Counted from the whole stretch's first letter, positions 41,340-59,699 are shown. The stretch is 63,992 nt of DNA, filler included, from Candidatus Woesearchaeota archaeon (GCA_003650545.1; 4 parts of 4 records of this genome joined end to end with filler, not necessarily neighbours in it); one strand, 5' to 3'. Numbers and translations: made by a program. The notes: a model not told the origin generated them from the letters alone.

Positions 41340-41348
41340 TTGTCACCT

Positions 41349-42840: not shown

Positions 42841-42841
42841 T

Positions 42842-43381
42842 TCATGCCACTCTCACATAAACCTGCGATTTAAGTCGTTCAATTGCTTTTAATGCCATTT
42901 CATAGAACATCATTGCTTTTTCTTTGCCCCGTGCAAGAGATCCATACGCTAATGATGCAGCAAGAAGCGTTGCAGCGTGACTTGCAATTTTAAATTCTGG
43001 CGTGTCGCTGGTGTAGCCGTAGGTGTATGTGATTTCAATGATTTTTTCGCCTGAATCAACAGTGTCGCTGAATTTAATCATTCCAACGTTATGATAAACG
43101 TAGTAGTCTTCGTTTTCAGTTTTCTGTTCACCATTGATTTTAAGGCTGGTTACATTGATGATCGGCTGATTATTCACGAAGATTTTATCGACGCCGCCAT
43201 CAAAATATTCGGTTGCGCTGGGCGGTGTTTCTCCATTTGCAGTGTCAACGAAAGTTTTGTTCGTCCAGTTCTTGATGAGGTGTTCGGCTTGATTAATAAT
43301 TGATTGTAGTGTAGTGTCGTCGATGACGTCGGCTTCTATGCCTGCGATTGCCCTTACATCACTAATTGTTGTTAACGTCAC
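42842..43381 (-). CDS. Head-tail adaptor
   Basis: TTISDVR start, EYFDG, PIINVTSL and ITYTYGY; directly after the MCP. Confidence 0.7.
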   Translation of the reverse strand: MTLTTISDVRAIAGIEADVIDDTTLQSIINQAEHLIKNWTNKTFVDTANGETPPSATEYFDGGVDKIFVNNQPIINVTSLKINGEQKTENEDYYVYHNVGMIKFSDTVDSGEKIIEITYTYGYTSDTPEFKIASHAATLLAASLAYGSLARGKEKAMMFYEMALKAIERLKSQVYVRVA

Positions 43382-43515
43382 TTCAAATCACCATTGAGCG
43401 TTTATAAAAATAGTGAAGGCTGGGCCGACGTGCTGCGGCCCATATAAATTCATCTACGCCGGGCGCCAATAAACCGGCGGATACTCACGTAAAACAGTGT
43501 TTGAGTTTCGCTTGC

Positions 43516-45837
43516 TTATGCAGTGATGATCTCAACGATTGCCTTGTCAAATAAAACGTCAACGCCAAACCTGTGAGTTGCAACGATCTTTAGCTGTCTC
43601 TTACCGATTTCTTTCTGTGTTTCTACTAGTAATTCGCGTTTTGGAGCTAGAACTACTGCGTCGCGCCTCATGAGAAAGGCGTGATAACAGGTGACTCCAC
43701 CAGCATTTTCAGTTGTTGGAACCTTGCTTGATAATACGATTGGTATGCCCATGATTGAGTCCATTACAACTTTTCCGCCAGCGACACCGGCCTTACTAGC
43801 ATCCTTAAACCATTGTAATGAATTATTTAAATCGTGCCATTGCTTTGGTGACAGTACGAGTACGAGGTCGCTTGGAGTTACATCATATCCATTATCGGCA
43901 ATAGTCTTAAGAGCTTTTAATACGAGGTCAGCGGTGAAAGTATCGGCAGAATCAATTGAGTCAACATCAGTTGCATCTCCACCATAAATTTCAGTTATAT
44001 TCGTATCAGCCTTGAGAGTTGACAGTATAACTTCGTCTTCCTTGAGCTTAGCGGCTTTAGCGAGGCCAGCATTTATTGCTCTTATAAGCTCTTCGCCGAG
44101 ATCCTCAATGTCTTGATAATCAATGGTGCCGACTAAACCGTATTCGTTCAATGTTACTTCAACTGCGCTTACAGTCCAAGTAGTATCGGATGGCTCAGTT
44201 CCCTTCGTGAGCTGAGCGAACTCTGGAACAGTTATTTTTCTTATTCTTACTCTATCGCCTTGAGTTACTTGAACTACTCTTACAGCGCTCCTTAAGTTTG
44301 CAATAAGTCCAATTGGCTCCGCTTCAATTTCAGTCTTCCACGTTACTTGAGTTACACCAGTGCCAATAGATACAGCTTCTCTAAGATCCTTGACTGTCTT
44401 TAGAATTGGATCCTTCTCTTCCATCACAACACCCTTTCCTGCCTTCTCTTCTACCTTCTCCATTTTCTCCTCACCCTCAACCTTTTCTACTTCTTTTTTG
44501 CCCCCCACAGATTCCACAGCCGACGTGGGGGCAACCGTCGGCTGCGGCTCCTCAAGTTGATGAGGAGCATGAACCTCGTCACTTACTTCAAGCATTTCCT
44601 TGAATTCTGGCGGCTCTTTGTCGAACTGCTCATAGTGTGCACGTAAATGCTCATAAACTGCCCTTCGATCCTTAGCTGGAATATTGACGCCGCCACGCGC
44701 ACCCATCAATGCAGCCATAGCCGCAGCAACGCCGCGCCAAACGACGACAAGTTTACCGTCGATCACGTCGTGATGCGGCAATTTGTATGAGCCGAAGTTT
44801 TCCGGATCATTCTCGTCATACCATGCAAATGCCATTCGATATTTTCGCCAATCAATCTTGTCTTTATCGCCGGATCCATCACTACTTGCCCATTTTCGTA
44901 TTCTTGTGATTGCAGCGGTTTTATCCCACTCTCGTTCTTCAGGTGCCTTCGGCGTTTTATGTTTTGGTGGAACGGCTTCAGCAACTTCTTTGTCATTATT
45001 GTAGTTTTCTAGGCTAATTGTAACGTTGACTTGGGCTTCTGGGCCGACATCAATGTTTGCTTGTGGCTCGGAGGCTGCTGGCTCAACCTCAATTTTCGGC
45101 TCTGGCTTTTCAGCAACTGTCGGTTTAGCTTCAATATTGGGTTCTTTCACTTCTTTCAGGGAAACTTCTTCCTTTTCTTTCCCTTTCTCCTCAACTTTCT
45201 CTTGTTTTTTCTCACTCATATTCTCACAACAAACAAGTTTTTCAATGACCATGATATTCGCATGTGGATCGCCGGGCACGGCGACAAGTGAAAGCTCACA
45301 AAAACGAAGATTACGCGGTACACGAATACCATCAAGATAATCTATAAGCTCATAATCAGCTGCAATACTTACATGCTTAATAACACCGGCCCGAATCTTA
45401 TCGGCAACCTCATCATCATAAATTTCAGCTTCAAAAACAATTGCCCGCTCATCTTCATCCCAATAAGCATTCACGACTTTGCCAACCGCATTATTCACGT
45501 CAACATGCTCCAAGTAAACCGGCACGCCAATGAGGCTTTGAGCCGCCTTTTTCAACTCAGTCTCTAAATATAAATTCCAGTTGCGAGTTGCACCGGCATG
45601 AATGGCATAGCCGCGAATCCTTAATGGCTTAACATCAAGACGAAACTTCTCAAATGATATTCGCCATTCTCTTCGAAATTTCTGGAGCTGCGGCTCAATT
45701 GGCTTTGTCTCGTCAAGCATATATTTGTTGAGCCACATGCGATAATATTCTTCACCTTTTTCTTCACCATATATTTCGATGAAGTTGCGATAAATTGTCT
45801 CAAAGTCGGGATGACGATTAGGCGGCATAAAACTCAC
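43516..45837 (-). CDS. Prohead protease / scaffold / HK97-fold major capsid fusion
   Basis: Protease motifs IRGYA, LEH, VSI and ELSLVAVPGDP; acidic linker; C-terminal MCP (LVLSPKQW, IMGIPIVLS, HRFGV). Confidence 0.85.
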   Translation of the reverse strand: MSFMPPNRHPDFETIYRNFIEIYGEEKGEEYYRMWLNKYMLDETKPIEPQLQKFRREWRISFEKFRLDVKPLRIRGYAIHAGATRNWNLYLETELKKAAQSLIGVPVYLEHVDVNNAVGKVVNAYWDEDERAIVFEAEIYDDEVADKIRAGVIKHVSIAADYELIDYLDGIRVPRNLRFCELSLVAVPGDPHANIMVIEKLVCCENMSEKKQEKVEEKGKEKEEVSLKEVKEPNIEAKPTVAEKPEPKIEVEPAASEPQANIDVGPEAQVNVTISLENYNNDKEVAEAVPPKHKTPKAPEEREWDKTAAITRIRKWASSDGSGDKDKIDWRKYRMAFAWYDENDPENFGSYKLPHHDVIDGKLVVVWRGVAAAMAALMGARGGVNIPAKDRRAVYEHLRAHYEQFDKEPPEFKEMLEVSDEVHAPHQLEEPQPTVAPTSAVESVGGKKEVEKVEGEEKMEKVEEKAGKGVVMEEKDPILKTVKDLREAVSIGTGVTQVTWKTEIEAEPIGLIANLRSAVRVVQVTQGDRVRIRKITVPEFAQLTKGTEPSDTTWTVSAVEVTLNEYGLVGTIDYQDIEDLGEELIRAINAGLAKAAKLKEDEVILSTLKADTNITEIYGGDATDVDSIDSADTFTADLVLKALKTIADNGYDVTPSDLVLVLSPKQWHDLNNSLQWFKDASKAGVAGGKVVMDSIMGIPIVLSSKVPTTENAGGVTCYHAFLMRRDAVVLAPKRELLVETQKEIGKRQLKIVATHRFGVDVLFDKAIVEIITA

Positions 45838-47240
45838 TCCTTAAACATAAACTCGAAAACAAGCGGAAACTGATCACTATACCACATTTTTGCCTTCGAA
45901 AGATCCCACTCGGCTTTAGACTTGTCAAATATGATTGCACAAACCCATCGTCGGCCGCCGGTGCCCGTGACTTTCGCAACCATAATTTTTATACCTTGAT
46001 TAGCGTCAATTGAATAGTATCTTATGCTTGACTTGTCAATCCGGTTAGGATCAACAAGAATAAGCATAACTTGTTTCGGTGTTTCAACCCACTTTGCACG
46101 ATAGCCGAGCGCCTCTTTAGTCTCAGCTTCAGTTTCTTCTTCAATTGGAAATCCCATTTTCTGAAGCCACTTGCGGGCCGTCGATGTGTTGATGATGCTT
46201 ATTTCTGGCTTGACGAGTTGTGCAATATCGTTAAGCGTTAATTCATCAAGTTTGGTGCGTGGGAAGCCCCAATTCAGACGCGGTACTTCAGTTAAATCAT
46301 AACCTTCAATGAGTGGCTTGAAAATTTCGCTTTCAACTTTACGCTTAATATATCGCTGTAAACCGGCAACATGGCGCTCAACGGCTTCAAGCATTGCTCG
46401 GGCCGACGCTTCAGTTGCATTACGCAAATAACTTAAGAGCGGCGCGCCTAAACCCTCAAAAATATTGCGTTCAAGATATTCAATAAAATCAGCAAATCTT
46501 AATCGCGGATCAATCTCAATAACCTCATGTTGAATGTCGCCGCTTACAATTGGATCTTCATCCGGATCTAAATTGTTAAGAACAATTTTGAGGCTTTCAA
46601 CACTTGCCTCATCGCCGCATTTCCAAATTACTTTAGGTGCAGCATAGCGGTGAATGATTTTTTCCATATCTTCATTAAATTGCTTCTTAATCTCCAAGAA
46701 TTTAAGAACGGGTTTAATCATTGAAATGCCGTAGGCTTTCGTGCCGATTTCAAGATATTTTAAATGCACGATTTCTTCAGGTTTGAATTGTATTTCGCGG
46801 CCCGCGACAAGCTGCACATATCCTTCAATAACACCGTGCTCGTCACGTTTTACGCGAATATTCGTTGACGGTAACAATTTAATGTTAAGGAGTTTTTTAC
46901 CGTCAAAAACTTTTTCGATATACGCGTTGCCATAAATGAGCATGTTGCGAGTTGCTCTAAGAAGTAAGCCGTCAAGATTTACTTTAGCTGCAAATTCATC
47001 GACAATCTGCTTTGCACGCTCATCTTCACATGAAGTGTAGTAGCCGACGCCGGCAACCATTTCAGCGATGAAGTCAACGGCGGCCCGCACAACCGGATCA
47101 TTCAAATAGTAATACTCGTAAGTGCTGGGATCATCTTCAGGTGGCTCACCATAGTATTTGAAGAGGCTTGCAGCTGAGTCAACAATGCCTTTTTGCTTTT
47201 TAATTCTGAAAAATTTCTTTACGCGCTCAATAAAACTCAA
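45834..47240 (-). CDS. Portal protein with extra C-terminal domain
   Basis: DPVVRAAVD, IYGNAY, FKPEEIVHLK and YGIS. Confidence 0.9.
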   Translation of the reverse strand: MSFIERVKKFFRIKKQKGIVDSAASLFKYYGEPPEDDPSTYEYYYLNDPVVRAAVDFIAEMVAGVGYYTSCEDERAKQIVDEFAAKVNLDGLLLRATRNMLIYGNAYIEKVFDGKKLLNIKLLPSTNIRVKRDEHGVIEGYVQLVAGREIQFKPEEIVHLKYLEIGTKAYGISMIKPVLKFLEIKKQFNEDMEKIIHRYAAPKVIWKCGDEASVESLKIVLNNLDPDEDPIVSGDIQHEVIEIDPRLRFADFIEYLERNIFEGLGAPLLSYLRNATEASARAMLEAVERHVAGLQRYIKRKVESEIFKPLIEGYDLTEVPRLNWGFPRTKLDELTLNDIAQLVKPEISIINTSTARKWLQKMGFPIEEETEAETKEALGYRAKWVETPKQVMLILVDPNRIDKSSIRYYSIDANQGIKIMVAKVTGTGGRRWVCAIIFDKSKAEWDLSKAKMWYSDQFPLVFEFMFKE

Positions 47241-47332
47241 CTTTTCTTCCTCACAAACGGATTTTTTGCTTTATCAATGACTGTTTTCTGTGACCTTAGA
47301 AACTTGAAGAAGCGCTTGAATTGCTTGTTCAT
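47237..47332 (-). CDS. 31-aa basic peptide between terL and portal
   Basis: MNKQFKRFFKFLRSQKTVIDKAKNPFVRKKS; its TGA overlaps the portal TTG. Confidence 0.45.
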   Translation of the reverse strand: MNKQFKRFFKFLRSQKTVIDKAKNPFVRKKS

Positions 47333-47365
47333 CTCATAAATTATAATTGTCATAAGACAAGTTTC
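47332..47365 (-). promoter_or_regulatory. 34-bp repeated motif, copy A (candidate late promoter/operator)
   Basis: 31/34 identical to 51908-51941; TTGTC-N4-GACAA palindrome followed by a TATA-like box. Confidence 0.6.
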
Positions 47366-48726
47366 TAGAAAATTTTCTTCGCCTTATCAACAAAAATTCG
47401 CGGCTTAGTAAATGCAGCATAAACAGCTAACGCGAAAGCCCAAAGCCGATCGTCATGCGTTCCAGCAGGATGATAAAATTTTATGCGGCCATCCTTAGTA
47501 AGCTCAAACTTCTCAACATTTAATTCAGCAATGAGATCCTTATCATACGGAATCTTAACTAAGCCTTCTTGCATCTTCGCTTTCAGTAAACTCATTATTT
47601 CCTCTTTACGCGGCAATGTTAAGGTAATGCCGGTGACGTTTGATAAGCCGGCCCGCTTCATATCCTCAGTAATATATTCGCCAACACCTGTAACATCAGT
47701 ATAGATTCGCCGCACAAATTTCCAGCGATCATAAAGCGTCTTTACATAACCGATGACTGAAGCATAAGGCGTTTCAAGTGGAAATCTATGTAAGTGAATA
47801 AGCTTAACAACATCATTCTCTTTTTCAACAACTGTAACAACTGAATAATCGACTTTCTTACCGAAGTCAATACCAATATAGAGATCTTTACTGGTTATAC
47901 GCGCATCAAACGAATAATAATCAAGCTCAGCATCAATACACTTAGCAATTAAGTCTTGCGTCAACCATGAATCTTCATCTTCAACAAATTCAGCTTCAAA
48001 CTCCATTTTGAAACGCTGTGCCGGCAACTGTCGTTTCATCTCCTCAATAAAATCAAGACTTACAAGGCCGCATTTTACAACTTCGCGCCAATCTAGGAAA
48101 TGTTTGCTAAAGTTTGGATCAATACACATTTTGTAGAAAACTGAGTCGGTGCCCCAAGGCGTTGAACTCACAATAAGCGTGCCATCCGTCGTGCTAAGCA
48201 TTGGATAAAGAACTGAATAAAAAATGTCTTCATCATCTTTGAAAAATGCGGCTTCATCTGTAATTACTTGATGAGCCGTATAACCTCGCAAAAGATGAAC
48301 CGAACATGGAAGCGCGACAATTTGAGATCCATTCTTAAACCTTATGACGGTTCGCAGCATTTTTAAAACAAGCTGTCGGCGAAGATCTTTAGGCAAGCTT
48401 AGTAAGAAGCCGTGAATCTTATCCATCATGATCATGCTTTGACGTTTTGATGGTGCAACAATAAGCGTTAAAGTTTTCGGGTGAGTAACTGCAAACCAAA
48501 TGGCGCGGGCTGCAATTGTCGTTGACTTACCGCTCTGACGCGGCCACTTCACAACAATACGCTTAGATTGATCCCGCAACAACTTTTCTTGATAAGGCAA
48601 CGGCTTAAAACCAAGAATCTTCACGCAAAACTCAACCGGATCACTCGGCAACTTAACACGCTTATATTGTTGTTTAAGCAATTTATCAATGATTTTTGTA
48701 AGTCGTTCAAGCTCGGTTCGACTCAT
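47365..48726 (-). CDS. terL: Terminase large subunit
   Basis: Walker A RQSGKS, Walker B ITDEAA, STP, and nuclease GIDFG and HDD. Confidence 0.95.
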   Translation of the reverse strand: MSRTELERLTKIIDKLLKQQYKRVKLPSDPVEFCVKILGFKPLPYQEKLLRDQSKRIVVKWPRQSGKSTTIAARAIWFAVTHPKTLTLIVAPSKRQSMIMMDKIHGFLLSLPKDLRRQLVLKMLRTVIRFKNGSQIVALPCSVHLLRGYTAHQVITDEAAFFKDDEDIFYSVLYPMLSTTDGTLIVSSTPWGTDSVFYKMCIDPNFSKHFLDWREVVKCGLVSLDFIEEMKRQLPAQRFKMEFEAEFVEDEDSWLTQDLIAKCIDAELDYYSFDARITSKDLYIGIDFGKKVDYSVVTVVEKENDVVKLIHLHRFPLETPYASVIGYVKTLYDRWKFVRRIYTDVTGVGEYITEDMKRAGLSNVTGITLTLPRKEEIMSLLKAKMQEGLVKIPYDKDLIAELNVEKFELTKDGRIKFYHPAGTHDDRLWAFALAVYAAFTKPRIFVDKAKKIF

Positions 48727-49334
48727 AAAAATCGCCTTAATTGTGATTGGTTTGTTAATTCGATAATTGCATTCTTAAAGTTTAGAAGATTTATTTTAAA
48801 CAATTCTTCGTTTGTTAATTTGTTTATTGGCCGAGTGTGCTTTTTCCATCCTTGCCATATCAAACCATTTTTGACGAAAAAAGACGGTATTGTCGTGTCA
48901 AATCCATCAAAATTTAAAATTATTTCCGGCTTCTTTCCCATCCAACCTAAAAACCAACGTTTTTTATCTTTTGTAAATTCTAAAAATTCATTTAATGAAT
49001 AATCACGTGTAACCAATCCTTTTAAACATGGTTTTCGTGGAAAAGCAACCCACTCAAAATTTTGAGCAAAATTAAGTTCACTTTTAAAATGAAGCGGAAA
49101 AATCCAATTTATATGTGAAAATTTTTTAAGAAGCCATAATAAATCATAACGAAAATCAGGATAAACTACAAATTTAACTTCATTACCATATTCAACTAAA
49201 ATTTTAAGTAGTTTCTTCACATTTGGTTTACCAAAACGAACAAATTCATTGTCAACAAACTCCGGAAAAGTAAGAAAACCAAGCTCTTTCACATATTTTA
49301 TTTGATAATAATAACATGGTATTGCAATAATCAT
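48723..49334 (-). CDS. TGT/DpdA-like TIM-barrel protein (AT-rich insert)
   Basis: Ordered motifs FVDN, VVYPD, IFPLH, WVAF, WFLG and GFDTT parallel the transglycosylase barrel strands. RBS GGTGTGA precedes the ATG at 49334. Confidence 0.5.
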   Translation of the reverse strand: MIIAIPCYYYQIKYVKELGFLTFPEFVDNEFVRFGKPNVKKLLKILVEYGNEVKFVVYPDFRYDLLWLLKKFSHINWIFPLHFKSELNFAQNFEWVAFPRKPCLKGLVTRDYSLNEFLEFTKDKKRWFLGWMGKKPEIILNFDGFDTTIPSFFVKNGLIWQGWKKHTRPINKLTNEELFKINLLNFKNAIIELTNQSQLRRFL

Positions 49335-49413
49335 AATCACACCTAGAGTATTTTGGTTGGAATATTCTTGTGAGACGCTCAAGTTCACTTCGACTCATAA
49401 AATCACCAGAAAT

Positions 49414-49522
49414 ATTGGGCCGGAGGGCCTGAATCTGTGATGAAAACCAGGCTAGATGATTGGTGATTTAAGGCTTAGCAACCGAGGCACCTGCAGCCAG
49501 CGGGATACCCTTCCGGCCCAAT
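49414..49522 (+). ncRNA. Candidate box C/D guide sRNA 2 inside an 11-bp outer stem
   Basis: GTGATGA-12 nt-ATGA-ttg-GTGATTT-12 nt-CCGA (49437-49485), enclosed by ATTGGGCCGGA/TCCGGCCCAAT. Confidence 0.6.
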
Positions 49523-49636
49523 TCAATATTTTCTTAGAACGTAGTATAAATTTATTCTGGTTGGAATATGCTGATGAGAATGTGAAGAGATCCCTCCCTT
49601 CATTGAGGCCCTACATGCCTCTCTGGTGAGGATCAT

Positions 49637-49918
49637 CTATTCCATCATCTCTTCGAGGAGCTTTAGTTTTTCTTTGAGTAATTCGAGTTGCTTCTTTATG
49701 TCTTGCTCGTCATAGCTGTTGAGTATTGAGTTTATTGTTTGAGCAATATATGCAGCAAGCCTTGCCCACTTTTCCCTTCGCTTCACATTGAGTCTTTTAT
49801 CTGTTGAGTAGCGATAACAAATGTCAAAAAGCTCCTTAAGTTTCTCAATTATTTTTTCACGTTCAAGCTGCGTGTCAATAGCCATTAAACTCTCAAATAC
49901 GCTTTTCATTTCACTCAC
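49637..49918 (-). CDS. Putative terminase small subunit
   Basis: Small helical protein with a coiled-coil end upstream of terL; positional call only. Confidence 0.5.
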   Translation of the reverse strand: MSEMKSVFESLMAIDTQLEREKIIEKLKELFDICYRYSTDKRLNVKRREKWARLAAYIAQTINSILNSYDEQDIKKQLELLKEKLKLLEEMME

Positions 49919-49919
49919 C

Positions 49920-50096
49920 TTAAATCACCTTCTTCACTTTTCGCTTTACTTCGCGGATTTGCTCGCGCACTGTTTCAATTTCGCTTTCATAGTCGAAGTC
50001 GAAGGCCTGCCAAATTTTTAGCTGCATTTCCGGCTTATCCATCGGGTTATAGAATTTTTCGAATAGTCTTAATGCGAGGGGTTTTCGAACTCCCAT
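49920..50096 (-). CDS. 58-aa hypothetical protein (below ORF-track cutoff)
   Basis: GGGGAG RBS; MGVRKPLALRLFEKFYNPMDKPEMQLKIWQAFDFDYESEIETVREQIREVKRKVKKVI; fills the gap exactly. Confidence 0.65.
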   Translation of the reverse strand: MGVRKPLALRLFEKFYNPMDKPEMQLKIWQAFDFDYESEIETVREQIREVKRKVKKVI

Positions 50097-50758
50097 TCAA
50101 CTACTCCCCGCGTCAACTTATCATATTTTTTAAGTTTCTTCACGTCTTCAAAATACTCTTGATCATCAAACCATGCAAAACCATCATAAATAATGCCGCG
50201 ATAACCGCGTTCTGCTGCTGCTTTATCGATGATCGGCAATGGATTAGGGCCGGCAGTAGTTTCTATAATACATATTTTATTCTTATATGTCGTTTCAACC
50301 CACGCATGAAAACCTAAGAACTGTTTTGTTTTTGCGTCGATGATCGCGCCTAACACAACTTTACACGGTATGTTTTTCGCTAAGAGTAGTGAAGCAAGAA
50401 GTAATGATGTGTCAATACATAAGCCGTATTTGACTCTGAGGGTTTGGGCCGGCTTCAACCAGCCATATTTTGAGCTTAATTCGAAATGATAGATTGGGCC
50501 GGCTGCTTTGAAGATTAAGACTTTCCGCTCAGTTGACGGCTTACCTTTCCACGTGAATGGATATTTGATTAGGCGGCATACGGTTCGTGTTGCTTCTTCG
50601 ATGATCCGGTCGGGATCTTTATGTCTTATGCGTTTTACAATGTCTAGTACGGCAGGATTATCTTTTTGAATGTAGTCAAAAATATAGTCGAGTTCGCTGA
50701 CAAGGCCGTAATTAACGGTGATTGGCTTTGAATTGCGAGTATAACGTTTAAGCGTCAT
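50069..50758 (-). CDS. Transglutaminase-like cysteine protease
   Basis: GLCIDTSLLLASLL, HAWVE and IIETT (Cys-His-Glu triad). Start placed at MTLKR. Confidence 0.8.
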   Translation of the reverse strand: MTLKRYTRNSKPITVNYGLVSELDYIFDYIQKDNPAVLDIVKRIRHKDPDRIIEEATRTVCRLIKYPFTWKGKPSTERKVLIFKAAGPIYHFELSSKYGWLKPAQTLRVKYGLCIDTSLLLASLLLAKNIPCKVVLGAIIDAKTKQFLGFHAWVETTYKNKICIIETTAGPNPLPIIDKAAAERGYRGIIYDGFAWFDDQEYFEDVKKLKKYDKLTRGVVEWEFENPSH

Positions 50759-50762
50759 GTTT

Positions 50763-50978
50763 TCACACTTCAAAAAGTTTTGCAAATAATACAATGAAAC
50801 TGAGAAGAATAACGAAAATCGTCAAAAGTAGATAAGCTGAAATTGTAATGTAAACTAAGAAGATGATCCAGCCGGGCAATGATCCAGGCCGAAAAACATC
50901 AATTAAAATAAGTGCAATCAGCAAAATAAAGAATGCAAGCGTGTTAAAGTCAAATTCAACTTTCCTATCACTTTCCAT
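50763..50978 (-). CDS. Small two-TM membrane protein
   Basis: Two hydrophobic helices. Confidence 0.65.
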   Translation of the reverse strand: MESDRKVEFDFNTLAFFILLIALILIDVFRPGSLPGWIIFLVYITISAYLLLTIFVILLSFIVLFAKLFEV

Positions 50979-51008
50979 GATGATCCCACCAAAATGGTGG
51001 TGGGGGGT

Positions 51009-51080
51009 TGGGCCGGCTCAGCTAGCGACCAAGTTCATCATCGATTATTCAGCTTTGGGAGGATCATCATCGCCGGCCCA
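51009..51080 (-). ncRNA. Box C/D guide sRNA 1
   Basis: TGGGCCGGC-G-ATGATGA-TCCTCCCAAAG-CTGA-ATAATCG-ATGATGA-ACTTGGTCGCTAG-CTGA-GCCGGCCCA: four consensus boxes, 11- and 13-nt guides, a 9-bp terminal stem and a 3-nt k-turn bulge; intergenic. Confidence 0.9.
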
Positions 51081-51090
51081 CAAGAACCTG

Positions 51091-51318
51091 CTATTTCTTT
51101 GCTTCTTCGGCTTTTGCGTCAAAGTATGCTTTCATAAACATGGCATCAAGTGGCAGTAATGGTGAAATGAGCATTGTAATGTCTTGAACATTAAAGCCTT
51201 TCAAAAGCCCGACAAACAATGCTGCAAATGTGCCGCCAGTCCAAGCTACTGCAAGCCAGAATCTGTAATCTCGCTCTTTCTTCGTCAATTTTACTTCTTC
51301 TTTTACTTCTTTACTCAT
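51091..51318 (-). CDS. Holin-like small membrane protein
   Basis: Two TM segments and a charged C-terminus; resemblance only. Confidence 0.5.
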   Translation of the reverse strand: MSKEVKEEVKLTKKERDYRFWLAVAWTGGTFAALFVGLLKGFNVQDITMLISPLLPLDAMFMKAYFDAKAEEAKK

Positions 51319-51929
51319 TTAAACCACCTTTCCAAAATCTTACGAGTGTAAATATATGCAAAGAATGTGAAAGTTAGGATCGTGCCGAAAGTCGAGATGA
51401 GTGGCAGCCAATCGTAAAGCCAATCCAAACCTGCAAACGCAAGCATCTCGCAGAATGCGTAAATGCCTTGTGCAAACGCGTTTGTCATTAATGCGAATTT
51501 ATCGTCAATGTCTTGGCCGGGCCGCAATGCAAGAATCATATAGAGAATGAAAACCGAACCGCCGCCCATAAATGCAACAGCGATGATTCGATTAAGCGAT
51601 TCAGGCCATGCAGTTGGGAAAACAGCGGCGCCATGCGGCATTAATTTAATGTAGCCGTCGCCGCCAAGCCAGCGTAAAACAACGAGATGACCAAACTCAT
51701 GTATCGGCAAAGTCATGAGCCAAAAAATAAGATATACAAATGTAAATGAAAGAATCTTGAAAAGCGTGGGCCGACGTGCACAAGCAAGATAAAGTTGCAC
51801 TCGCAAATCACGTCGCTGTAAATATAAAGTTAAAGCGATGCCACCGACAATTAATGAAGTAAGCAATTCGAAAACAATGGGATTCAAGGCGGATCCTCTC
51901 ACAAAATTCTCACAAAATATAGTTGTCAT
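51315..51929 (-). CDS. M50-like membrane zinc metalloprotease (start may be TTG near 51887)
   Basis: PIHEFGH within a TM helix and AFMGG. Confidence 0.7.
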   Translation of the reverse strand: MTTIFCENFVRGSALNPIVFELLTSLIVGGIALTLYLQRRDLRVQLYLACARRPTLFKILSFTFVYLIFWLMTLPIHEFGHLVVLRWLGGDGYIKLMPHGAAVFPTAWPESLNRIIAVAFMGGGSVFILYMILALRPGQDIDDKFALMTNAFAQGIYAFCEMLAFAGLDWLYDWLPLISTFGTILTFTFFAYIYTRKILERWFK

Positions 51930-51941
51930 AAGACAAGTTTC
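51908..51941 (-). promoter_or_regulatory. 34-bp repeated motif, copy B
   Basis: Heads the leftward late gene block; matches 47332-47365. Confidence 0.6.
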
Positions 51942-52117
51942 ACGTCACAGCAATATGCAGTGAATCATCATTTTACTCATCACGTGCAGCAGAAAATGAA
52001 GCTTAGAACCGAGATAGAAATGTCAAAAACACTTAAATAACGAAAATAATAAAATATTTTATGAACCCCAGCGGTTTAAAGAACCGCGGGGAAATTGAAA
52101 AACAAGGTGAAAATTAA

Positions 52118-52447
52118 ATGTCGATGGCGGCGGATGAGGCCGCAACAATTATTATGCGAGCAGCATCACTCTATCATAAAGCAATTGAAGATCAGCTTAA
52201 TTGCCTCGCAGAAAATGACGTTGATTTTACAGTTTCATATACTGCATTAAAAAATGATCGCGGCCACTGGAGCTTAAAACTTAATGATCCTTCAAATGTT
52301 AATGAAAAATTTGTTAAACAAATTCTCTATTTGATGCGGGATGCAGCATATAATTTTGCAGCAATAATTAGAAGCCTCGGCTTCAACACTGACGTAAAAA
52401 TAAGCAGCAAAAAAGGAATCTTAATTATTTGGAAAAAAGTTAAGTGA
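52118..52447 (+). CDS. Hypothetical viral protein
   Basis: GGTGA RBS, upstream TTAAATA box and a leader hairpin at 52066-52091. Confidence 0.7.
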   Translation: MSMAADEAATIIMRAASLYHKAIEDQLNCLAENDVDFTVSYTALKNDRGHWSLKLNDPSNVNEKFVKQILYLMRDAAYNFAAIIRSLGFNTDVKISSKKGILIIWKKVK

Positions 52448-53126
52448 ATTTTGTTTTAAGTTCTTCAAGCTGCTTTATTGCTTCTTCAATGTCACTTAAA
52501 CTTTTAATTGTGAATGTAAGTGTTATTGCTTTCTCTCCTGCTTCTTTAATCTTGAAGTTTGGTGTTTTAATTATCTTTTTGAAGTATAGTGTTGAGTCGC
52601 GGTAATCTGTTTCACGTCCACAGTCTTCTGCTGTTTTTGCATAGAAATTATCTTGTAAATCATGTTTGATTAAGCGAACTTTTATTCTTGCGAGTTGTCG
52701 GCCTGCCTCTGATCCACGTGGATATCTTCTTGATCCTCTGTAAGCCCAGCATACGCGAATTGCTTCAGCAGTATCTGAATCTTCAATACTATCAATGTCT
52801 AGAACGAGATAATTCTCAGTTTCTTTTATTACTTTGACTTTCACTGCAACCAGCTGATAAGTAACTTTATGAACTTCACTTGCTGCTCCAAGAACATCAA
52901 TGATGTCGGCCGGCAGAATTTCATTAACATTTAACTCAACTTCCTCAACGCTAGGCTCGCTAAAAACTATTAGTTTTGCTTTTTCCAGCTCTTCTTTTGA
53001 TCCGCGGAAAATAAAGCCTCCATAACGTCCTTCACTTGCATATCTTATTTCATCATTCTCCATCAAAAAAGTAAGACACTTCTTTTCTGAAGGAAGTCGA
53101 AACACGAGTTTTTTAAGAGGCTCCAT
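52440..53126 (-). CDS. Hypothetical viral protein
   Basis: 228-aa ORF with its own TATA box and GGTGG RBS. Confidence 0.75.
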   Translation of the reverse strand: MEPLKKLVFRLPSEKKCLTFLMENDEIRYASEGRYGGFIFRGSKEELEKAKLIVFSEPSVEEVELNVNEILPADIIDVLGAASEVHKVTYQLVAVKVKVIKETENYLVLDIDSIEDSDTAEAIRVCWAYRGSRRYPRGSEAGRQLARIKVRLIKHDLQDNFYAKTAEDCGRETDYRDSTLYFKKIIKTPNFKIKEAGEKAITLTFTIKSLSDIEEAIKQLEELKTKFT

Positions 53127-53255
53127 CTTTTTCCACCCAGTAGAAAATTTAGAACAAGAAGTATATAAACTTTTCTATTCAGGTTCCCTTTGAATAGAAC
53201 TGATTCCGAAAAATTTAAATACAACTACAACCACATTTTCTACCGGGTGGAAATC

Positions 53256-53459
53256 ATGAATGAAATGGTAAAAATTAAACTACCATATTTTCCATTCATA
53301 AAATATGTACCATATAAGCAGTTGCTCAATGAAGTTAGAGGTACATTTCTTGAACAAGCTTTAAAACAAATAAAGGAAACTGGGCGAAAATATGCAGAAG
53401 TAAAGTGTCCTTGTTGTGGCAGAATCATTAGAATTTCTATCGAAGAAGTTGAGAGGTGA
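53256..53459 (+). CDS. Small hypothetical protein with CPCC motif
   Basis: Start reassigned to the ATG after the GGTGG RBS. Confidence 0.65.
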   Translation: MNEMVKIKLPYFPFIKYVPYKQLLNEVRGTFLEQALKQIKETGRKYAEVKCPCCGRIIRISIEEVER

Positions 53460-53465
53460 TTTATA

Positions 53466-53684
53466 ATGCAAGTTCAAGTTTTTTCTTTGGAGCGGCTTCG
53501 TGAGTTTGTTGAGTCGCAGCGTTGCAGCTGGTGTGGCGGTCGGCTGAAAATGAAGTATTATGATCATCCAAATGGGGTTGAAACTGAGGTTGGCAAAGTC
53601 TGGGTTTATGGTGAATGTCAGAAATGCGGGTACCAGTGGGCGTTATGGAAACTCTTAAGGAGAAAAAGTAGAAGTGTTACGTGA
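53466..53684 (+). CDS. Zinc-finger protein
   Basis: CSWC..CQKC; GAGGTGA RBS. Confidence 0.75.
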   Translation: MQVQVFSLERLREFVESQRCSWCGGRLKMKYYDHPNGVETEVGKVWVYGECQKCGYQWALWKLLRRKSRSVT

Positions 53685-53916
53685 AGGTGGAAGAGTGATG
53701 AGTGAGCGTAAATTGAAGTCAATTAAAGTTGAGTTTAATGTGTGGCAGGAGCTTGTGCGGCTTCAAGGTGAATTGCAGAAAAAACAAGGTAAGCGAGTGT
53801 CTATGAGTGACACAATACAATATTTATTAGATAGATATTATATAACAAGCAGTAAAAAAGTTAGCGATAGTTATACAAAATCCGGCGGCGATGACAATTA
53901 CGTTGAAGTCACTTAA
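53674..53916 (+). CDS. RHH/antitoxin-like DNA-binding protein
   Basis: KSIKV..VWQEL..SMSDTIQYLL pattern. Confidence 0.65.
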   Translation: MLREGGRVMSERKLKSIKVEFNVWQELVRLQGELQKKQGKRVSMSDTIQYLLDRYYITSSKKVSDSYTKSGGDDNYVEVT

Positions 53917-54277
53917 TTTTCATTTTTCTTTTTTGTTTTTCTAAGTCTAGTGCTGCTTTTATTCTGAAGTTGCCTTGCTCATCTTTGACGATTGAAAGTG
54001 ATCTTACATGTTTTGAGTTTCTTCGTCTTGCTTGTGCAACCCGCCACAAATACCGCATCTTAATTCTATTCTTCTTCACATAATCTTGCAGCCACCGCCG
54101 CTTATATTCGCGGCGAAAACGCTTTTGACACTCATCACATCTAGTTGCCGGCCCACGTTTCCTAAAGATTCTAAAACATTCGCGGCAAAGCCGGCCCAAA
54201 ACAACAACCAAAATGTATCTAACCATCACACATTCAATATCACGGATTTTCTTATGAACTTCCTTTTCAGTTCTCAT
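53909..54277 (-). CDS. Basic zinc-finger protein
   Basis: CREC..CDEC followed by an Arg-rich helix. Confidence 0.65.
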   Translation of the reverse strand: MRTEKEVHKKIRDIECVMVRYILVVVLGRLCRECFRIFRKRGPATRCDECQKRFRREYKRRWLQDYVKKNRIKMRYLWRVAQARRRNSKHVRSLSIVKDEQGNFRIKAALDLEKQKRKMKIK

Positions 54278-54450
54278 TTATCCTCACGCTCCTTTACTTT
54301 TCTTTTGAATTGAAGAATTGCCCAGCCTTTTTTGCGAAAACAAATTGTTTTGATGTGTTTTTCTTCAATCCATGACAAACAAAACCATTTCCTACCTATA
54401 CCATCAAATTCATATAATTCAATATCTTTGTGTTTCATTATCAACCGCAT
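54274..54450 (-). CDS. 58-aa hypothetical protein (below cutoff)
   Basis: MRLIMKHKDIELYEFDGIGRKWF...; ATGA overlap with the next gene. Confidence 0.55.
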   Translation of the reverse strand: MRLIMKHKDIELYEFDGIGRKWFCLSWIEEKHIKTICFRKKGWAILQFKRKVKEREDK

Positions 54451-54731
54451 TTTCCTACACCCTTTTTTTCTTGTTGTTTGATGAGTTGCTCAATGATTTC
54501 GTTTTGAACGTCGCGGTAGAAGTCAGCGCCAAAGATTGCATGCACAAGGCCGCATTTTGGGCATACGAGTTCTTTTAAATGTATTGCGCCGATGTATTCA
54601 ACGACTTTAAGTTTTGCGCCGCATTCAATGCAGTGTGAAAGTCGAATGTCAAGCTGCGGCGGTAAATGTGAGTCTATAACGACTTTATACATCCAGCCGG
54701 TCGATGCTACGAGGATCATGCGCTTACCCAA
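54441..54731 (-). CDS. Zinc-ribbon protein
   Basis: CIEC..CPKC. Confidence 0.65.
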   Translation of the reverse strand: MGKRMILVASTGWMYKVVIDSHLPPQLDIRLSHCIECGAKLKVVEYIGAIHLKELVCPKCGLVHAIFGADFYRDVQNEIIEQLIKQQEKKGVGKCG

Positions 54732-55015
54732 ACCCTATACCTCCATTCATGTGATGATGATCTTGCATTACAAATTTCATAATACATGATCTTAGAATGC
54801 TGCTGCACACGCTGAAGCTTACCAATAATAACTTCAAGATCACGCAAAAGCTCCCGCCTCACATCATCAAGCTCACTCATAACATTCCCAAGCTCATCAA
54901 CCTGAAGATTTTCAACTGAACTTTTTAGATCATCAAGCAACTCAACATAAAACTGCGAAGACTTCCACACCCTAAACAATCTCTCAAGCAGTAAACCAAT
55001 ATTCTGAGATTTCAA
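54716..55015 (-). CDS. Coiled-coil hypothetical protein
   Basis: Overlaps both neighbours in the operon. Confidence 0.6.
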   Translation of the reverse strand: MKSQNIGLLLERLFRVWKSSQFYVELLDDLKSSVENLQVDELGNVMSELDDVRRELLRDLEVIIGKLQRVQQHSKIMYYEICNARSSSHEWRYRVWVSA

Positions 55016-55809
55016 AATGATACCCCCTCCCCCTTTTTCATATTATTTTTATTTTCACATCTATCACAATGTTCTCGAAATTCACAAGCAACATAGCATT
55101 GCCAACGCATAGACTCATTTTGCTTCGCTTCGGCCGGCGGCAACGTCTTCGTAATAATAAATTCATGAAGCTGCTTCACACGATCAATAAGCATATCAAG
55201 TCGATCACGATCAAACACGACTGGACAAACCTTAATCTGCAACGTAGGCTTCTCAACATAAACAATTGCGCCATAACGGCAGCGCATCGCATACAAGTAA
55301 ATCATAAGCTGATTCACATGCTCAGAATAAGGTAATTCAACATCAACATGCTCCTTACGCTCACGATCCCACTTTCTAAATGACTTTATGCTTTTCACTT
55401 CAATGACAATTGGCTCTTTAAATCCGCGAAGCAGAATCATATCGTCGTAGCGACCGCGGATCTGAATATCATCAATAATAATTGCGAATTCACCTTCATT
55501 GTGCAGCAACTCAATCTTCTCACTTTTCTCCAAAACTTCTTTAATGAAGCTGTGAATAATGTTGCCGGCGTGAAAGATCCTGAGCTTTTCACTTGAAACG
55601 GGTTTCGGCGGTGAAGTATAAAGATAAAAGAGCCGCCTTAAACAATACGAAATCATTGATGGATAGTAAACGCCAACAACTAATGGTCGTTCTTCACGCC
55701 TTAAATATTCATCGATTGCTTGATTAATCGTGCCTTCAAGATCAAGTGATAAGAAGCTATTTTCGGCGAGTTCGGGCCGGCTGTATGGAATTAATATGAC
55801 TTCACTCAC
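55012..55809 (-). CDS. Cas4-like PD-(D/E)XK nuclease (solo)
   Basis: PSMISYCLR, GRYD, IEVKS, QLMIY and C-terminal CxxxCxxxxxC Fe-S cysteines. Confidence 0.85.
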   Translation of the reverse strand: MSEVILIPYSRPELAENSFLSLDLEGTINQAIDEYLRREERPLVVGVYYPSMISYCLRRLFYLYTSPPKPVSSEKLRIFHAGNIIHSFIKEVLEKSEKIELLHNEGEFAIIIDDIQIRGRYDDMILLRGFKEPIVIEVKSIKSFRKWDRERKEHVDVELPYSEHVNQLMIYLYAMRCRYGAIVYVEKPTLQIKVCPVVFDRDRLDMLIDRVKQLHEFIITKTLPPAEAKQNESMRWQCYVACEFREHCDRCENKNNMKKGEGVSF

Positions 55810-55810
55810 G

Positions 55811-55919
55811 TTATCATCACTCCTTCTTGAATTATCATCACAGTGAGTGATGGTAATACGCGTGAAAAGTGATGATAATCTACGGAAAAGTGATGATGAG
55901 TGATGATAAGTGATGATAA
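55811..55919. repeat. Iteron cluster 1 (seven GTGATGATAA-like 10-mers)
   Basis: Reverse copies at 55811 and 55832; forward copies at 55847, 55869, 55890, 55900 and 55910. Confidence 0.85.
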
Positions 55920-55932
55920 TCTGTGAGAAACA

Positions 55933-56139
55933 CTAAGCATTTTCTTCACTCTCCTCAAAATATTCACATGAAGCACAATCACAATGCTTACAAACTTCGT
56001 CAGTTATCCACTGTCGATCACAGATGATCTCGTCCAATATTTTGCAGCGGGTTAGCAGTAATCCGCCTGAAGTTACGTGTTCAGCGTGTTTGCATTTAAA
56101 GCAAGGAGGTTCAAAATCCTCAAAATCTTCAGACTTCAT
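55933..56139 (-). CDS. Cys-rich small protein
   Basis: PCFKC plus five further cysteines. Confidence 0.65.
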   Translation of the reverse strand: MKSEDFEDFEPPCFKCKHAEHVTSGGLLLTRCKILDEIICDRQWITDEVCKHCDCASCEYFEESEENA

Positions 56140-57766
56140 TTTTATTCCACTCCATAAGTTTTAAGTAGAGATTACCGGCCCGACGCTCTAAGAATAGTTT
56201 ACCCTCATCGATGAGTTCTTCGATGATTGGATCGGGGTTTGCTAGTCCGTTGAGTGCACAGGTGTTCAGCAATTGTCGATATTCTATGCCTTCCGGCCGG
56301 TGTTTCTCTATGAGTGTGATGATCCAGCGCTTAAAACTTAATTTTTCTAGTGTTTTCTCTGTATTACCATCACTCATCATCACTTCCATTGTTTTATCAT
56401 CACTCGTTATCATCACTTTTTCCGGCGTTATCATCACAGGATGTGATGATAAAAACAGGTCTAGTGATGATGGAATGTAGCGGCGTGCAAGTCGAACTAT
56501 AAGTTTTTCATCGTATTTAATGGCGATTCGACTGTCGTCGTTACTCATTCGCATTTTCTTGAAGCCAAGCTTCTTCAAAATTTTGCCAAGCTGTGTAGGT
56601 CGCATTTGATCTTTTTCGTCTCGATTCATATTGATTTGATCAAGAATAGTTTGTAATGGTAATTTGTTTTTCTCGACGAGATCTTTACATTTGATGATTG
56701 CGTCGATGACTTCAGCTTCAATTGTTGTTCGTTCTTCTTCACGTATTATTGTTGCTAGGCTTTCACCATATTTAATCAAATTTTGTTTTACGTCGGCCGG
56801 CGTCACAGCGAGCGGTGCAATGAATAATTCAGTTAGGCGGCCGTTCTCACCTATCCGTACGATTTGATCCTCAGTTACGTTAAAGTCATCTTCAATTAGT
56901 TTTTGTATGCGGTATCGTAACAGTTTGCTGCGGAGATTGGCGGCCCAGTCAAAATCAAGCATAATCTTCACTTGTCGCACGGCGCGGCTCATATTAATTA
57001 TGAAGCATCTTGACTGAAATGTCGGTGCTAAAAGAGTTGTGCATGCAACTGCCTTGAAGCCAAACACGTCATAAAGGCCGAGTTCAAGTTTATTTTCACC
57101 AACTTTTTCAACTCGTATTGCACATTGTCCGCGTCGATATCCAGCGTTTAGGAGTGCCATGACTTCAAGCATGTCGCTGCGATTATAGATTTCAGCTTCA
57201 TCAAGAATGATTGTTGGGTGCCATGCTTCACATGCGCGGAATAATCCGGCTGGTCGAATGCTTGTTGACATTAAGCCGCGATAACTAAGTTGCCACAAAA
57301 CTTCTAGGCAGCGCGTTTTACCCGAGTTGAGTGGGCCGATGAAAAACAGGTAAGGTACTACATTGAATTTTTCGGGGATCCACGTCGCCATGATCCAGCT
57401 CGCCATAAGCGCGTAATGCTCCTTCTCGCTAAAATCAATATGCTGATAAACATAATCATAGATTTCTTGCCACAACTCATCTTCATTAACGCGATCAACC
57501 GGCGGCTTCGGAATAGGCGGCCAAGGCAGCTTCTTCAAAGCAACCTCATTAATCTCATAGCCATTTTCATCAACACCGAGATAACGTACTGCAGGCCGCT
57601 GCACATGCAAAACAAACTTATCACGCTCTCCACGCACAAAATAAGCTTCACAATAAGCGTATTGACCATCATCACACATTACTTGCTCAAACAGAAACAT
57701 ATTCCGCTGATCAAAATAACCTGGCGAATACTTTACAATAACCTTCTCACGACTATTACGCCTCAT
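56129..57766 (-). CDS. P-loop AAA+/helicase-like replication protein with C-terminal wHTH
   Basis: GPLNSGKT, ILDEAE, LLNAGY and the QSRC arginine finger. Confidence 0.75.
   Translation of the reverse strand: MRRNSREKVIVKYSPGYFDQRNMFLFEQVMCDDGQYAYCEAYFVRGERDKFVLHVQRPAVRYLGVDENGYEINEVALKKLPWPPIPKPPVDRVNEDELWQEIYDYVYQHIDFSEKEHYALMASWIMATWIPEKFNVVPYLFFIGPLNSGKTRCLEVLWQLSYRGLMSTSIRPAGLFRACEAWHPTIILDEAEIYNRSDMLEVMALLNAGYRRGQCAIRVEKVGENKLELGLYDVFGFKAVACTTLLAPTFQSRCFIINMSRAVRQVKIMLDFDWAANLRSKLLRYRIQKLIEDDFNVTEDQIVRIGENGRLTELFIAPLAVTPADVKQNLIKYGESLATIIREEERTTIEAEVIDAIIKCKDLVEKNKLPLQTILDQINMNRDEKDQMRPTQLGKILKKLGFKKMRMSNDDSRIAIKYDEKLIVRLARRYIPSSLDLFLSSHPVMITPEKVMITSDDKTMEVMMSDGNTEKTLEKLSFKRWIITLIEKHRPEGIEYRQLLNTCALNGLANPDPIIEELIDEGKLFLERRAGNLYLKLMEWNKNEV
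56364..56473. repeat. Iteron cluster 2 inside the replication gene
   Basis: Reverse copies at 56364, 56374, 56394, 56407 and 56428; forward copies at 56443 and 56464. Confidence 0.85.
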
Positions 57767-58071
57767 TTCAGTCCCTCACAAAGAAATTCAACTATACCAG
57801 CGAGAATGAAGACAAAACTGAGATGAGCTGTAATTAAGAGAATTGTCGCGAAAATGATGTACATAATTATTTTGAAGAAATCAATTGTGTATTGTGAGTT
57901 GAGATCTGGACCGCCGATTATGCGATAAATTTCATCGGTTAAATACCATGCGCCTGTAATTGTGCAAATATATATAATTATTGTTAAAATAATTGTAAGT
58001 GCTAAAAGCAACCCACTTTTAATTGCGAAATCAGCCTTTTCGAGTAAAGAGGAAAAAATAAGGAATTTCAT
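57763..58071 (-). CDS. Two-TM membrane protein
   Basis: Hydrophobic helices; ATGA overlap with the next gene. Confidence 0.6.
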   Translation of the reverse strand: MKFLIFSSLLEKADFAIKSGLLLALTIILTIIIYICTITGAWYLTDEIYRIIGGPDLNSQYTIDFFKIIMYIIFATILLITAHLSFVFILAGIVEFLCEGLK

Positions 58072-58077
58072 GGCATT

Positions 58078-58884
58078 TCACTCCATAATGTGCATATCTG
58101 GCTGCTTGTTGCGGCCCGGCTCTGGGCAAATCCAAATTGAAATGATGCCGATCTTGTTTGGCGGGAGTAAGCGACGCTCAGCGTATGATGCGGTTTTCGT
58201 TATCTTCCAGCCTCGCAGAAATGTGCCGGTAATCGCAAAGATCCTTTTGCGCTCAACGATTTTGCAGGATCTTGTGACGCGAAGCTGAATATTACGGAAA
58301 CCGGCAACTTCATGTACATGACCAACAAGATATATGTCGGCGTCAAAGTATCTTGCAAGATCCTCAACGCGATTTATTTTGCCGCCGATCCGCCGGCCCG
58401 AGTAATAGCCATGAGTCGCAAATATGTCGATGGTGACGGTGTGGCGGCCGCGTTTGAAAACAAGCTTTACAAATGCAGCAAAATCAAGATATGGCACACC
58501 AAGCTTATATGCAAGCTCATCAACCCAATTATGATAATGACGGCGTCTTAGTAAGTCATCATGGTTTCCAGTCAACAAACCTAGACAATTATGTTTGATT
58601 GGCTCAAAAAGCTCATAAATGAATTGATACTGTTTTTCTGGCGTGTAAAGCTCGGGATCAATTACATCTAAATCAAGTCGTTTCTCATTTGGATGAGGAA
58701 AAATTGCGTTGGCATAGTCACCCATTCCGATCCAGAGCGCATCTTGATGTAAGATGAAGTCGCGGATCTCAATTAGTTTATCTTTATCGCAATTTCGGTG
58801 ACCAACATGAAGATCGCCGAATGGAATGAGCAGAAATGTGTCGCCGGGCTTTTCATATTCGATGATGTGTTTTACAACGCGCAT
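58078..58884 (-). CDS. Calcineurin-like metallophosphoesterase
   Basis: GDLH, GD, GNHD, THG and GHVH. Confidence 0.9.
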   Translation of the reverse strand: MRVVKHIIEYEKPGDTFLLIPFGDLHVGHRNCDKDKLIEIRDFILHQDALWIGMGDYANAIFPHPNEKRLDLDVIDPELYTPEKQYQFIYELFEPIKHNCLGLLTGNHDDLLRRRHYHNWVDELAYKLGVPYLDFAAFVKLVFKRGRHTVTIDIFATHGYYSGRRIGGKINRVEDLARYFDADIYLVGHVHEVAGFRNIQLRVTRSCKIVERKRIFAITGTFLRGWKITKTASYAERRLLPPNKIGIISIWICPEPGRNKQPDMHIME

Positions 58885-58891
58885 AGAAACG

Positions 58892-59544: not shown

Positions 59545-59699
59545 GCCTTTTCACTCTCCTCTGCTTCGAAGAAGCGGCCGCATTTGCGGCAGAAAAAGAA
59601 TTTAGCGATGATTTCATTGTCGGTTGCAATAGTTAGTGAAGTAATGTTTTTGCTTTGACAATATGGGCATGAAATCTTGAGTGTTTGCTGGTTAAGCAT
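59541..59699 (-). CDS. 52-aa zinc-ribbon protein (below cutoff)
   Basis: MLNQQTLKISCPYCQSKN..FCRKCGRFF; stop overlaps the next start. Confidence 0.7.
   Translation of the reverse strand: MLNQQTLKISCPYCQSKNITSLTIATDNEIIAKFFFCRKCGRFFEAEESEKA

Follow-up and report, generated by a model that had tools for sequence, protein, structure and literature searches.

A 72-nt element on the minus strand of a 19,817-bp metagenomic contig is probably a true guide sRNA gene of the box C/D class, residing in a head-tailed viral or proviral genome of a type known from Bathyarchaeia. Judged by its boxes, spacers, terminal stem and covariance-model match, the element has the complete set of sequence features expected of an archaeal box C/D sRNA. 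It lies in a window of 63,992 bases, the whole stretch of DNA that was analysed, which is divided by three linkers of the form N44-TTAATTAATTAA-N44 (20507-20606, 40664-40763 and 60581-60680). The window is thus four contigs joined end to end, designated A to D in Table 1, with nothing that connects one to another, and ORFs running across the linkers, such as 40382-40663 and 40712-40861, are artefacts of these artificial junctions. The contig to which the first-pass annotation assigned the sRNA is viral at that position, but its extent is only 40764-60580, with linkers standing 10 kb from the sRNA on either side. Two readings were rejected on the same grounds. A cellular genome harboring a provirus with a truncated tail module, a reading derived from Pfam matches on 66 ORFs, is not tenable because the linkers make the flanks other contigs, and the missing tail genes are explained by contig C ending before them. 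Likewise, the CTP synthase of contig B, whose best named relatives are from Woesearchaeota/DPANN, says nothing of the host, as contig B is unlinked to the viral contig C.

The minus strand from 51080 to 51009 reads exactly as first annotated, and the consensus boxes, the guides of 11 and 13 nt, the perfect 9-bp stem and the GAU bulge described there were all re-read in the sequence. The boxes follow each other in the order C-D′-C′-D, all four matching the consensus, RUGAUGA for box C and CUGA for box D, with spacers of 11 and 13 nt separated by a loop of 7 nt, and the stem arms form nine perfect pairs out of nine. The typical spacer of archaeal methylation guides is about 12 nt. A k-turn is laid out as a stem, a 3-nt bulge and tandem G-A pairs, and the element agrees with this layout in that G-A-U would form a 3-nt bulge between the terminal stem and the first GA, as far as geometry can be read from sequence. 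At 9 bp, the GC-rich stem is longer than is the norm for archaeal sRNAs. The second motif pair, C′/D′, has been described as essential in archaeal guides (PMC8413462).

Table 1. Contigs of the window, predicted parts of the box C/D sRNA unit and surrounding features; positions are counted from the first base of the window.
Feature	Position	Strand	Remarks
Contig A	1-20506		Bacterial-type surface-polysaccharide cluster (Wzi, Wzy, flippase, glycosyltransferases), GC ~47%
Contig B	20607-40663		Archaeal housekeeping genes, GC 33%
Contig C	40764-60580		Carrier of the sRNA, 19,817 bp, GC 40.5%, artificial linkers at both ends
Contig D	60681-63992		Decarboxylase operon
Tail tube	41349-42185		Contig C
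Tail terminator-like protein	42445-42840		Contig C
Head-tail adaptor	42842-43381		Contig C
Protease-capsid fusion	43516-45837	minus	773 aa
Portal	45834-47240		Contig C
Large terminase subunit	47365-48726	minus	2.3 kb downstream of the sRNA, same strand
Downstream ORF	50763..50978	minus	71 aa, two hydrophobic segments; start codon at 50978
7-bp hairpin CCCACCA/UGGUGGG	50985..51004	minus	U-run in loop; between the sRNA and the start codon at 50978; from fold
Predicted box C/D sRNA unit	51009..51080	minus	72 nt including the 9-bp terminal stem; from sequence, pattern scan and snoPyro_CD
3′ stem arm GCCGGCCCA	51009..51017	minus	From sequence and fold
Box D CUGA	51018..51021	minus	Abuts the 3′ arm directly
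D guide	51022..51034	minus	13 nt; from sequence and pattern scan
Box C′ AUGAUGA	51035..51041	minus	Consensus
D′-C′ loop (k-loop)	51042..51048	minus	7 nt; from sequence and pattern scan
Box D′ CUGA	51049..51052	minus	Consensus
D′ guide	51053..51063	minus	11 nt; from sequence and pattern scan
Box C AUGAUGA	51064..51070	minus	Preceded by a single G at 51071
5′ stem arm UGGGCCGGC	51072..51080	minus	Contains the 8-mer GGGCCGGC; from sequence and fold
Upstream ORF	51091..51318	minus	75 aa, one hydrophobic segment; stop codon 10 nt before the sRNA
Cas4-like PD-(D/E)XK nuclease	55012-55809		Beyond the sRNA
Mre11-like phosphoesterase (nuclease)	58078-58884		Beyond the sRNA

A strict C-D′-C′-D regular expression, scored without a stem requirement, matches once in total over the two strands of the window and in none of 300 block shuffles, and a relaxed four-box pattern gives an identical result. 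The strict pattern has no match in 1,285,798 bases of related archaeal loci, while a pattern allowing up to two box substitutions has a single one in these 1.29 Mb, inside the coding region of a terminase; five shuffled controls for the latter gave 0, 1, 0, 0 and 0 matches. At Rfam gathering scores nothing matches anywhere in the window. When an E-value threshold is used instead, all 36 matches in the interval 50900-51200 are to C/D-box families, and the best of them is the general archaeal model snoPyro_CD (RF00095), with E-values of 1e-7 for the 301 bases and 6.6e-6 for the 19.8-kb contig. In the covariance-model check proposed with the first annotation, the model is matched end to end (positions 1-58 of 58), but the score of 42.1 bits is 2.9 bits below the gathering cut-off of 45 of this model, which was built on Pyrococcus sequences. 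The score appears to be a near miss and would not exclude the element from the archaeal C/D family. Over the whole contig, 10 of the 11 Rfam matches overlap the sRNA and the remaining one is a weak microRNA match (E 0.3), which leaves the sRNA as the only credible predicted RNA in the contig; tRNA genes were searched for in the window and none were found. The minimum-energy fold of −25.4 kcal/mol (z −2.48) retains the 9-bp stem, and 5 of 200 shuffled sequences fold equally well.

All genes of contig C that could be assigned by Pfam and further protein comparison are viral, belonging to a head-tail virus, and the rest are unassigned ORFs, so the viral context originally proposed for the sRNA is upheld. 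By its gene content, the contig is a partial genome of a head-tail virus or provirus. The structural genes, from terminase to tail tube, lie on one side of the sRNA, and the Cas4-like and Mre11-like nucleases on the other, where zinc-ribbon and RHH proteins are also encoded. Nearly all of the called genes share one strand and are tightly spaced. The 773-aa ORF has a fusion-like organization, with a part resembling a head maturation protease at approximately residues 100-240 and an HK97-type major capsid part at approximately residues 500-770. The sRNA itself occupies part of the 112 nt that separate the stop codon of the 75-aa ORF from the start codon of the 71-aa ORF, all on the minus strand. 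The two neighbors had been described as late membrane-protein genes; hydrophobic segments are found in both by Kyte-Doolittle analysis, while "late" is a label of the first-pass annotation only.

Several further features of the contig deserve mention. Two genes upstream of the sRNA, a 204-aa protein (51315-51929, minus strand) resembles unannotated viral polytopic membrane proteins and has a weak structural likeness to M50 site-2 proteases (TM ~0.5-0.6) in the ESM Atlas. The Atlas was consulted on whether this protein or a 228-aa upstream protein is a methyltransferase or L7Ae-like, and the 228-aa protein had no usable match there. The 204-aa, 75-aa and 71-aa membrane ORFs, together with a transglutaminase-like protein, may form an envelope or egress module. 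A 34-nt direct repeat with 91% identity and an AT-rich, TATA-like core occurs at 47332-47365, between the terminase and portal genes, and at 51908-51941, at the start of the 204-aa ORF, and may represent a repeated promoter. Finally, two inverted clusters of the repeat GTGATGAT(A/G)A, at 55809-55930 and 56364-56472 and approximately 500 nt apart, reach from the gap behind the gene for the Cas4-like nuclease into the 3′ portion of a 545-aa ORF. These repeats are iteron-like, as in a replication origin, and their core coincides with the box C consensus.

The host can be approached through the terminase, for which 1641 relatives at an E-value of 1e-10 or better were found among 7786 candidates. 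Among the 120 of these matches that were listed, with identities of 55-69%, all organism-named ones are archaeal, mostly from Bathyarchaeia/Bathyarchaeota, plus one from Nitrososphaerota and one from Thermoprotei. Scanning of one genome per species gave 131 confirmed terminase relatives, and 80 loci totalling 1.29 Mb were kept. The titles of 79 loci name Bathyarchaeia, Bathyarchaeota or Bathyarchaeales, and that of the remaining one (L030) a bacterial MAG. Many of the loci are integrated proviruses, as shown by the surrounding contigs of 0.1-2.4 Mb. In a complete Bathyarchaeota chromosome (L025, 983-4377), the terminase element lies approximately 5.6 kb downstream of a tRNA gene and a full archaeal 23S rRNA gene. 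The nearest cultured relative of the terminase in the phage collection is that of a haloarchaeal tailed virus, at 29.6% identity. When the region 50700-51400 is compared as DNA with 50,697 phage and archaeal-virus records, the matches span just 22-42 nt and do not exceed chance level. It is a reasonable inference from the terminase relatives (40-68% identity), the one line of evidence on the host of this single metagenomic contig, that the host is archaeal and probably a member of Bathyarchaeia.

A dispersed motif is common to the sRNA and its carrier. The 8-mer GGGCCGGC makes up the core of each stem arm, and contig C contains 12 copies of it, six per strand, against 0.1 copies expected from shuffles; the sites include 41805, 47647, 50446, 50496, 54147, 54190, 55774 and 58392. 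It is absent from contigs A, B and D and has 13 copies in the 1.29 Mb of related loci, corresponding to 0.01 per kb as against 0.61 per kb in contig C, or approximately 60-fold rarer. As the flanks of the copies are not conserved, the 8-mer is a short dispersed motif and no mobile element, and its presence on both sides of the sRNA argues that the two halves of contig C are one genome. Its use in the stem arms suggests that the sRNA is adapted to this genome, and the arms may also have a role at the DNA level or in RNA pairing.

No comparable C/D RNA was found in any of the 80 terminase-related loci by strict or relaxed pattern scans of the 1.29 Mb, and the two or three syntenic loci are likewise without one. 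In three of the loci (L002, L040 and L011), Rfam searches at E-values up to 1 returned no C/D family. Conservation of the boxes in relatives, a criterion set with the first annotation, was seen in 0 of 80 loci, the syntenic ones included. The available relatives are distant, as only 6 of the 30 query ORFs have relatives in these loci: besides the terminase, present in all 80, the portal is found in 33, a 93-aa protein in 25, the capsid in 6, and the tail tube and the transglutaminase-like neighbor in 2 each. The terminases of the loci examined are 40-64% identical to that of contig C, none above 64%. Given this distance, the absence in relatives weakens the guide claim without refuting it. The relaxed four-box pattern also has no matches in the crenarchaeal viruses SIRV2 and PSV, two genomes that are too few to weigh.

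The two loci that share the transglutaminase-like neighbor, L002 and L040, have a gap of 230-490 nt at the place equivalent to that of the sRNA. The gap contains a TATA-like box and, behind it, a stable hairpin rich in GC, and has no C or D boxes. This arrangement is located at 8398-8510 in L002 and 8268-8349 in L040; the hairpins have the common sequence CCGCCGCC...GGGUUGAGUGGCG and z-scores of −3.6 and −4.0, and the gap precedes a small ORF and the transglutaminase-like gene. Possibly it is a conserved leader of the structural operon. The replication-module genes of contig C have no relatives in the 80 loci, and the position of the sRNA corresponds to the junction of the part common to L002 and L040 with the replication module. 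In a further Bathyarchaeota locus (L011, 6283-6350, minus strand), a sub-threshold match to the cis-regulatory Rfam family GP20-b (31.4 bits against a cut-off of 36.2) lies beside a tRNA gene.

According to the N+5 rule invoked in the first-pass annotation, 2′-O-methylation occurs at the nucleotide paired five bases upstream of box D or D′. By this rule, the D′ guide would methylate the G in 5′-CUUUG*GGAGGA and the D guide the C in 5′-CUAGC*GACCAAGU (asterisks follow the nucleotide in question). In the window, the D guide matches only the antisense of the sRNA itself within two mismatches, and the D′ guide has a few matches with one or two mismatches, a chance level; in the 80 loci, the guide cores match about as often as chance predicts. 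Matches to E. coli 16S, 23S and 5S rRNA are weak only, the best being 9 Watson-Crick pairs and 1 G-U pair of 11 (16S:1449) and 9 plus 2 of 13 (23S:4). The best pairings in the Bathyarchaeia 23S rRNA of L025, 7 Watson-Crick and 4 G-U pairs of 13 for the D guide and 9 of 11 for the D′ guide, are unconvincing, as is the best among 12 tRNAs predicted in the loci (9 plus 3 G-U pairs of 13, in a tRNA-His). Because it includes CCUCC, the D′ guide weakly matches sequences resembling ribosome-binding sites; such matches, among them those at 57783-57773 and 47258-47248 with two mismatches each, were set aside as compositional. Among the RNAs searched, the guides thus appear to be orphans for now. The most likely candidates for targets are other positions in host rRNA or tRNA, chiefly in 16S rRNA, or RNA from the unassembled part of the virus.

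No L7Ae, Nop or fibrillarin domains were detected on contig C by Pfam at an E-value of 1e-3, or at 0.5 for 28 small or unassigned ORFs, in agreement with the earlier remark that none of the three proteins is recognisable there. A particle would therefore need the proteins of the host. From these observations we infer how transcription, processing, assembly and methylation might proceed and what the virus might gain. The sRNA would be co-transcribed with the neighboring viral genes on the same strand, as proposed from the 10 nt that separate it from the upstream stop codon, a distance too short for a promoter of its own; speculatively, TTTATGAA, approximately 50 nt upstream and within the 75-aa ORF, could serve as a weak TATA box, in a position comparable to that of the clearer boxes in L002 and L040. 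Host L7Ae would bind both the k-turn at the terminal stem and the k-loop inside, after which Nop5 and fibrillarin of the host would join and exonucleases would trim the ends to the protected 9-bp stem. The two guides of the particle would direct 2′-O-methylation five nucleotides from D′ and D. Co-transcription and trimming would fit what has been described for Nanoarchaeum equitans, where most C/D sRNAs have no promoter of their own and are processed out of longer transcripts (PMC3491384). As first suggested, the guides might then serve to reprogram the host methylation machinery. In its full form, the model has a Bathyarchaeia virus with its own guide borrow host L7Ae, Nop5 and fibrillarin so that, in the course of infection, one or two 2′-O-methyls are added to rRNA or tRNA of the host or to viral RNA and translation is tuned in favor of the virus; this can be put forward only tentatively and is less likely than not.

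Part of this evidence can also be read differently. The absence of a C/D RNA from all 80 related loci, the syntenic ones included, the lack of a guide target in the RNAs searched and the position at the boundary between the replication module and the part in common with L002 and L040 would all suit a real C/D sRNA gene that was recently taken from a host chromosome at a viral module boundary, brings no benefit and is soon lost, and C/D sRNA genes have been described as mobile in archaeal genomes (PMC3491384). Such an origin is nevertheless unlikely, given that no sign of decay is seen in the boxes or the 9-bp stem, all of them perfect, and that the arms use an 8-mer characteristic of this virus, with 0.61 copies per kb against 0.01 in the related loci, which points to adaptation to this genome. 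Archaeal mRNAs are regulated by L7Ae binding to k-turns, and the element might accordingly be imagined to act in cis, its k-turn and k-loop drawing L7Ae to a polycistronic viral transcript as a processing mark or for control of downstream translation, with the "guides" being mere spacers. The 112-nt gap between same-strand ORFs, with no space for an own promoter, would agree with this, as would the stable hairpins (z −3.6 and −4.0) in the equivalent gene-block leader of L002 and L040. For such a role, however, a single C/D-like motif would suffice and a full symmetric set of C, D′, C′ and D boxes with spacers of 11 and 13 nt would be superfluous, and the hairpins of the relatives have no boxes in common with the sRNA; a cis-acting element therefore seems improbable.

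It is also conceivable that the carrier is not what it seems, either because the contig was misassembled or misjudged and the sRNA is a host gene, or because the contig comes from a bacterial phage whose host has no such machinery. The window is artificially concatenated, the replication-module genes are unmatched in the 80 loci, and one of the 80 terminase loci, L030, is titled a bacterial MAG. Against this, the linkers are 10 kb off on each side, no assignable gene of contig C is a cellular housekeeping gene, the enrichment of GGGCCGGC on both sides of the sRNA ties the halves of the contig together, and 79 of the 80 terminase loci are from Bathyarchaeia, one of them beside an archaeal 23S rRNA gene, all of which makes a non-viral or non-archaeal origin very unlikely. 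Finally, two inverted copies of the 8-mer might bracket a C/D-like sequence by chance or for a purpose at the DNA level, with no RNA function; GGGCCGGC is indeed far in excess in the contig (12 copies against 0.1 expected), and TGATGA is over-represented in it, with 54 occurrences against 12.8 expected. Such a coincidence is scarcely credible in view of the four-box pattern, which even without the stem is found in none of the 300 window shuffles and has no strict and one relaxed match in 1.29 Mb of related DNA, and of the covariance-model E-value of 6.6e-6.

Taken as a guide sRNA gene of a virus, the element shares with the archaeal box C/D sRNAs (snoPyro_CD RF00095 and the sR families) the consensus C-D′-C′-D boxes, spacers of about 12 nt, the short loop, the stem and the k-turn layout; it differs from them in being carried by a viral contig and not a cellular chromosome, and in having no rRNA or tRNA target in the RNAs searched. 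The archaeal C/D machinery is related to the eukaryotic one, and the closest functional precedent is v-snoRNA1 of the Epstein-Barr virus (EBV). This, too, is a box C/D guide encoded by a virus and dependent on snoRNP proteins of the host (PMC2718842), and it has been reported to direct 2′-O-methylation of host rRNA at 18S-C621 and 28S-U1760 (PMC13597479). In contrast to this eukaryotic-type snoRNA of a herpesvirus, the element described here, predicted from its sequence, would be a symmetric archaeal double guide of a head-tail archaeal virus. Another comparison is offered by TIGR-Tas, RNA-guided systems of archaeal viruses and phages with dual spacers and a Nop-domain protein, which have been linked evolutionarily to box C/D RNPs; TIGR loci are described as tandem arrays, typically of 5-15 units with 9-nt spacers, that lie beside a tas gene and target DNA (PMC12045711). 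Identity with TIGR-Tas was rejected, as the element is a single unit with classical C/D boxes, contig C has no other four-box or C/D match, and no Nop domain is found on it by Pfam. Phages and archaeal viruses also carry tRNA genes, which offers an analogy for a small host-type RNA of the translation apparatus among viral genes, although a C/D sRNA is a different class of RNA.

No report of a box C/D sRNA in an archaeal virus was found among the titles and abstracts of the open-access papers retrieved, which agrees within that scope with the initial remark that no described C/D guide of a head-tail archaeal virus was known to its author, and the main text of a survey of Bathyarchaeia viruses contains no occurrences of "sRNA" or "non-coding" (PMC10848311). 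The novelty of the sRNA would thus lie in a new carrier for the known archaeal C/D family, as represented by one metagenomic contig. Even if it were a mere hitch-hiking host gene, it would still document virus-mediated movement of C/D sRNA genes. Three recombinant proteins and a transcript are enough to reconstitute the archaeal C/D particle, which makes the guide claim directly testable. If this claim is true, the sRNA would be an archaeal counterpart of EBV v-snoRNA1, extending to archaea the only viral precedent found, that of a human herpesvirus, and would be the first guide for RNA modification known among viruses of prokaryotes. If the sRNA is made and used, a gene of 72 nt, with no accompanying viral protein, would enable an archaeal virus to reprogram the RNA modification of its host.
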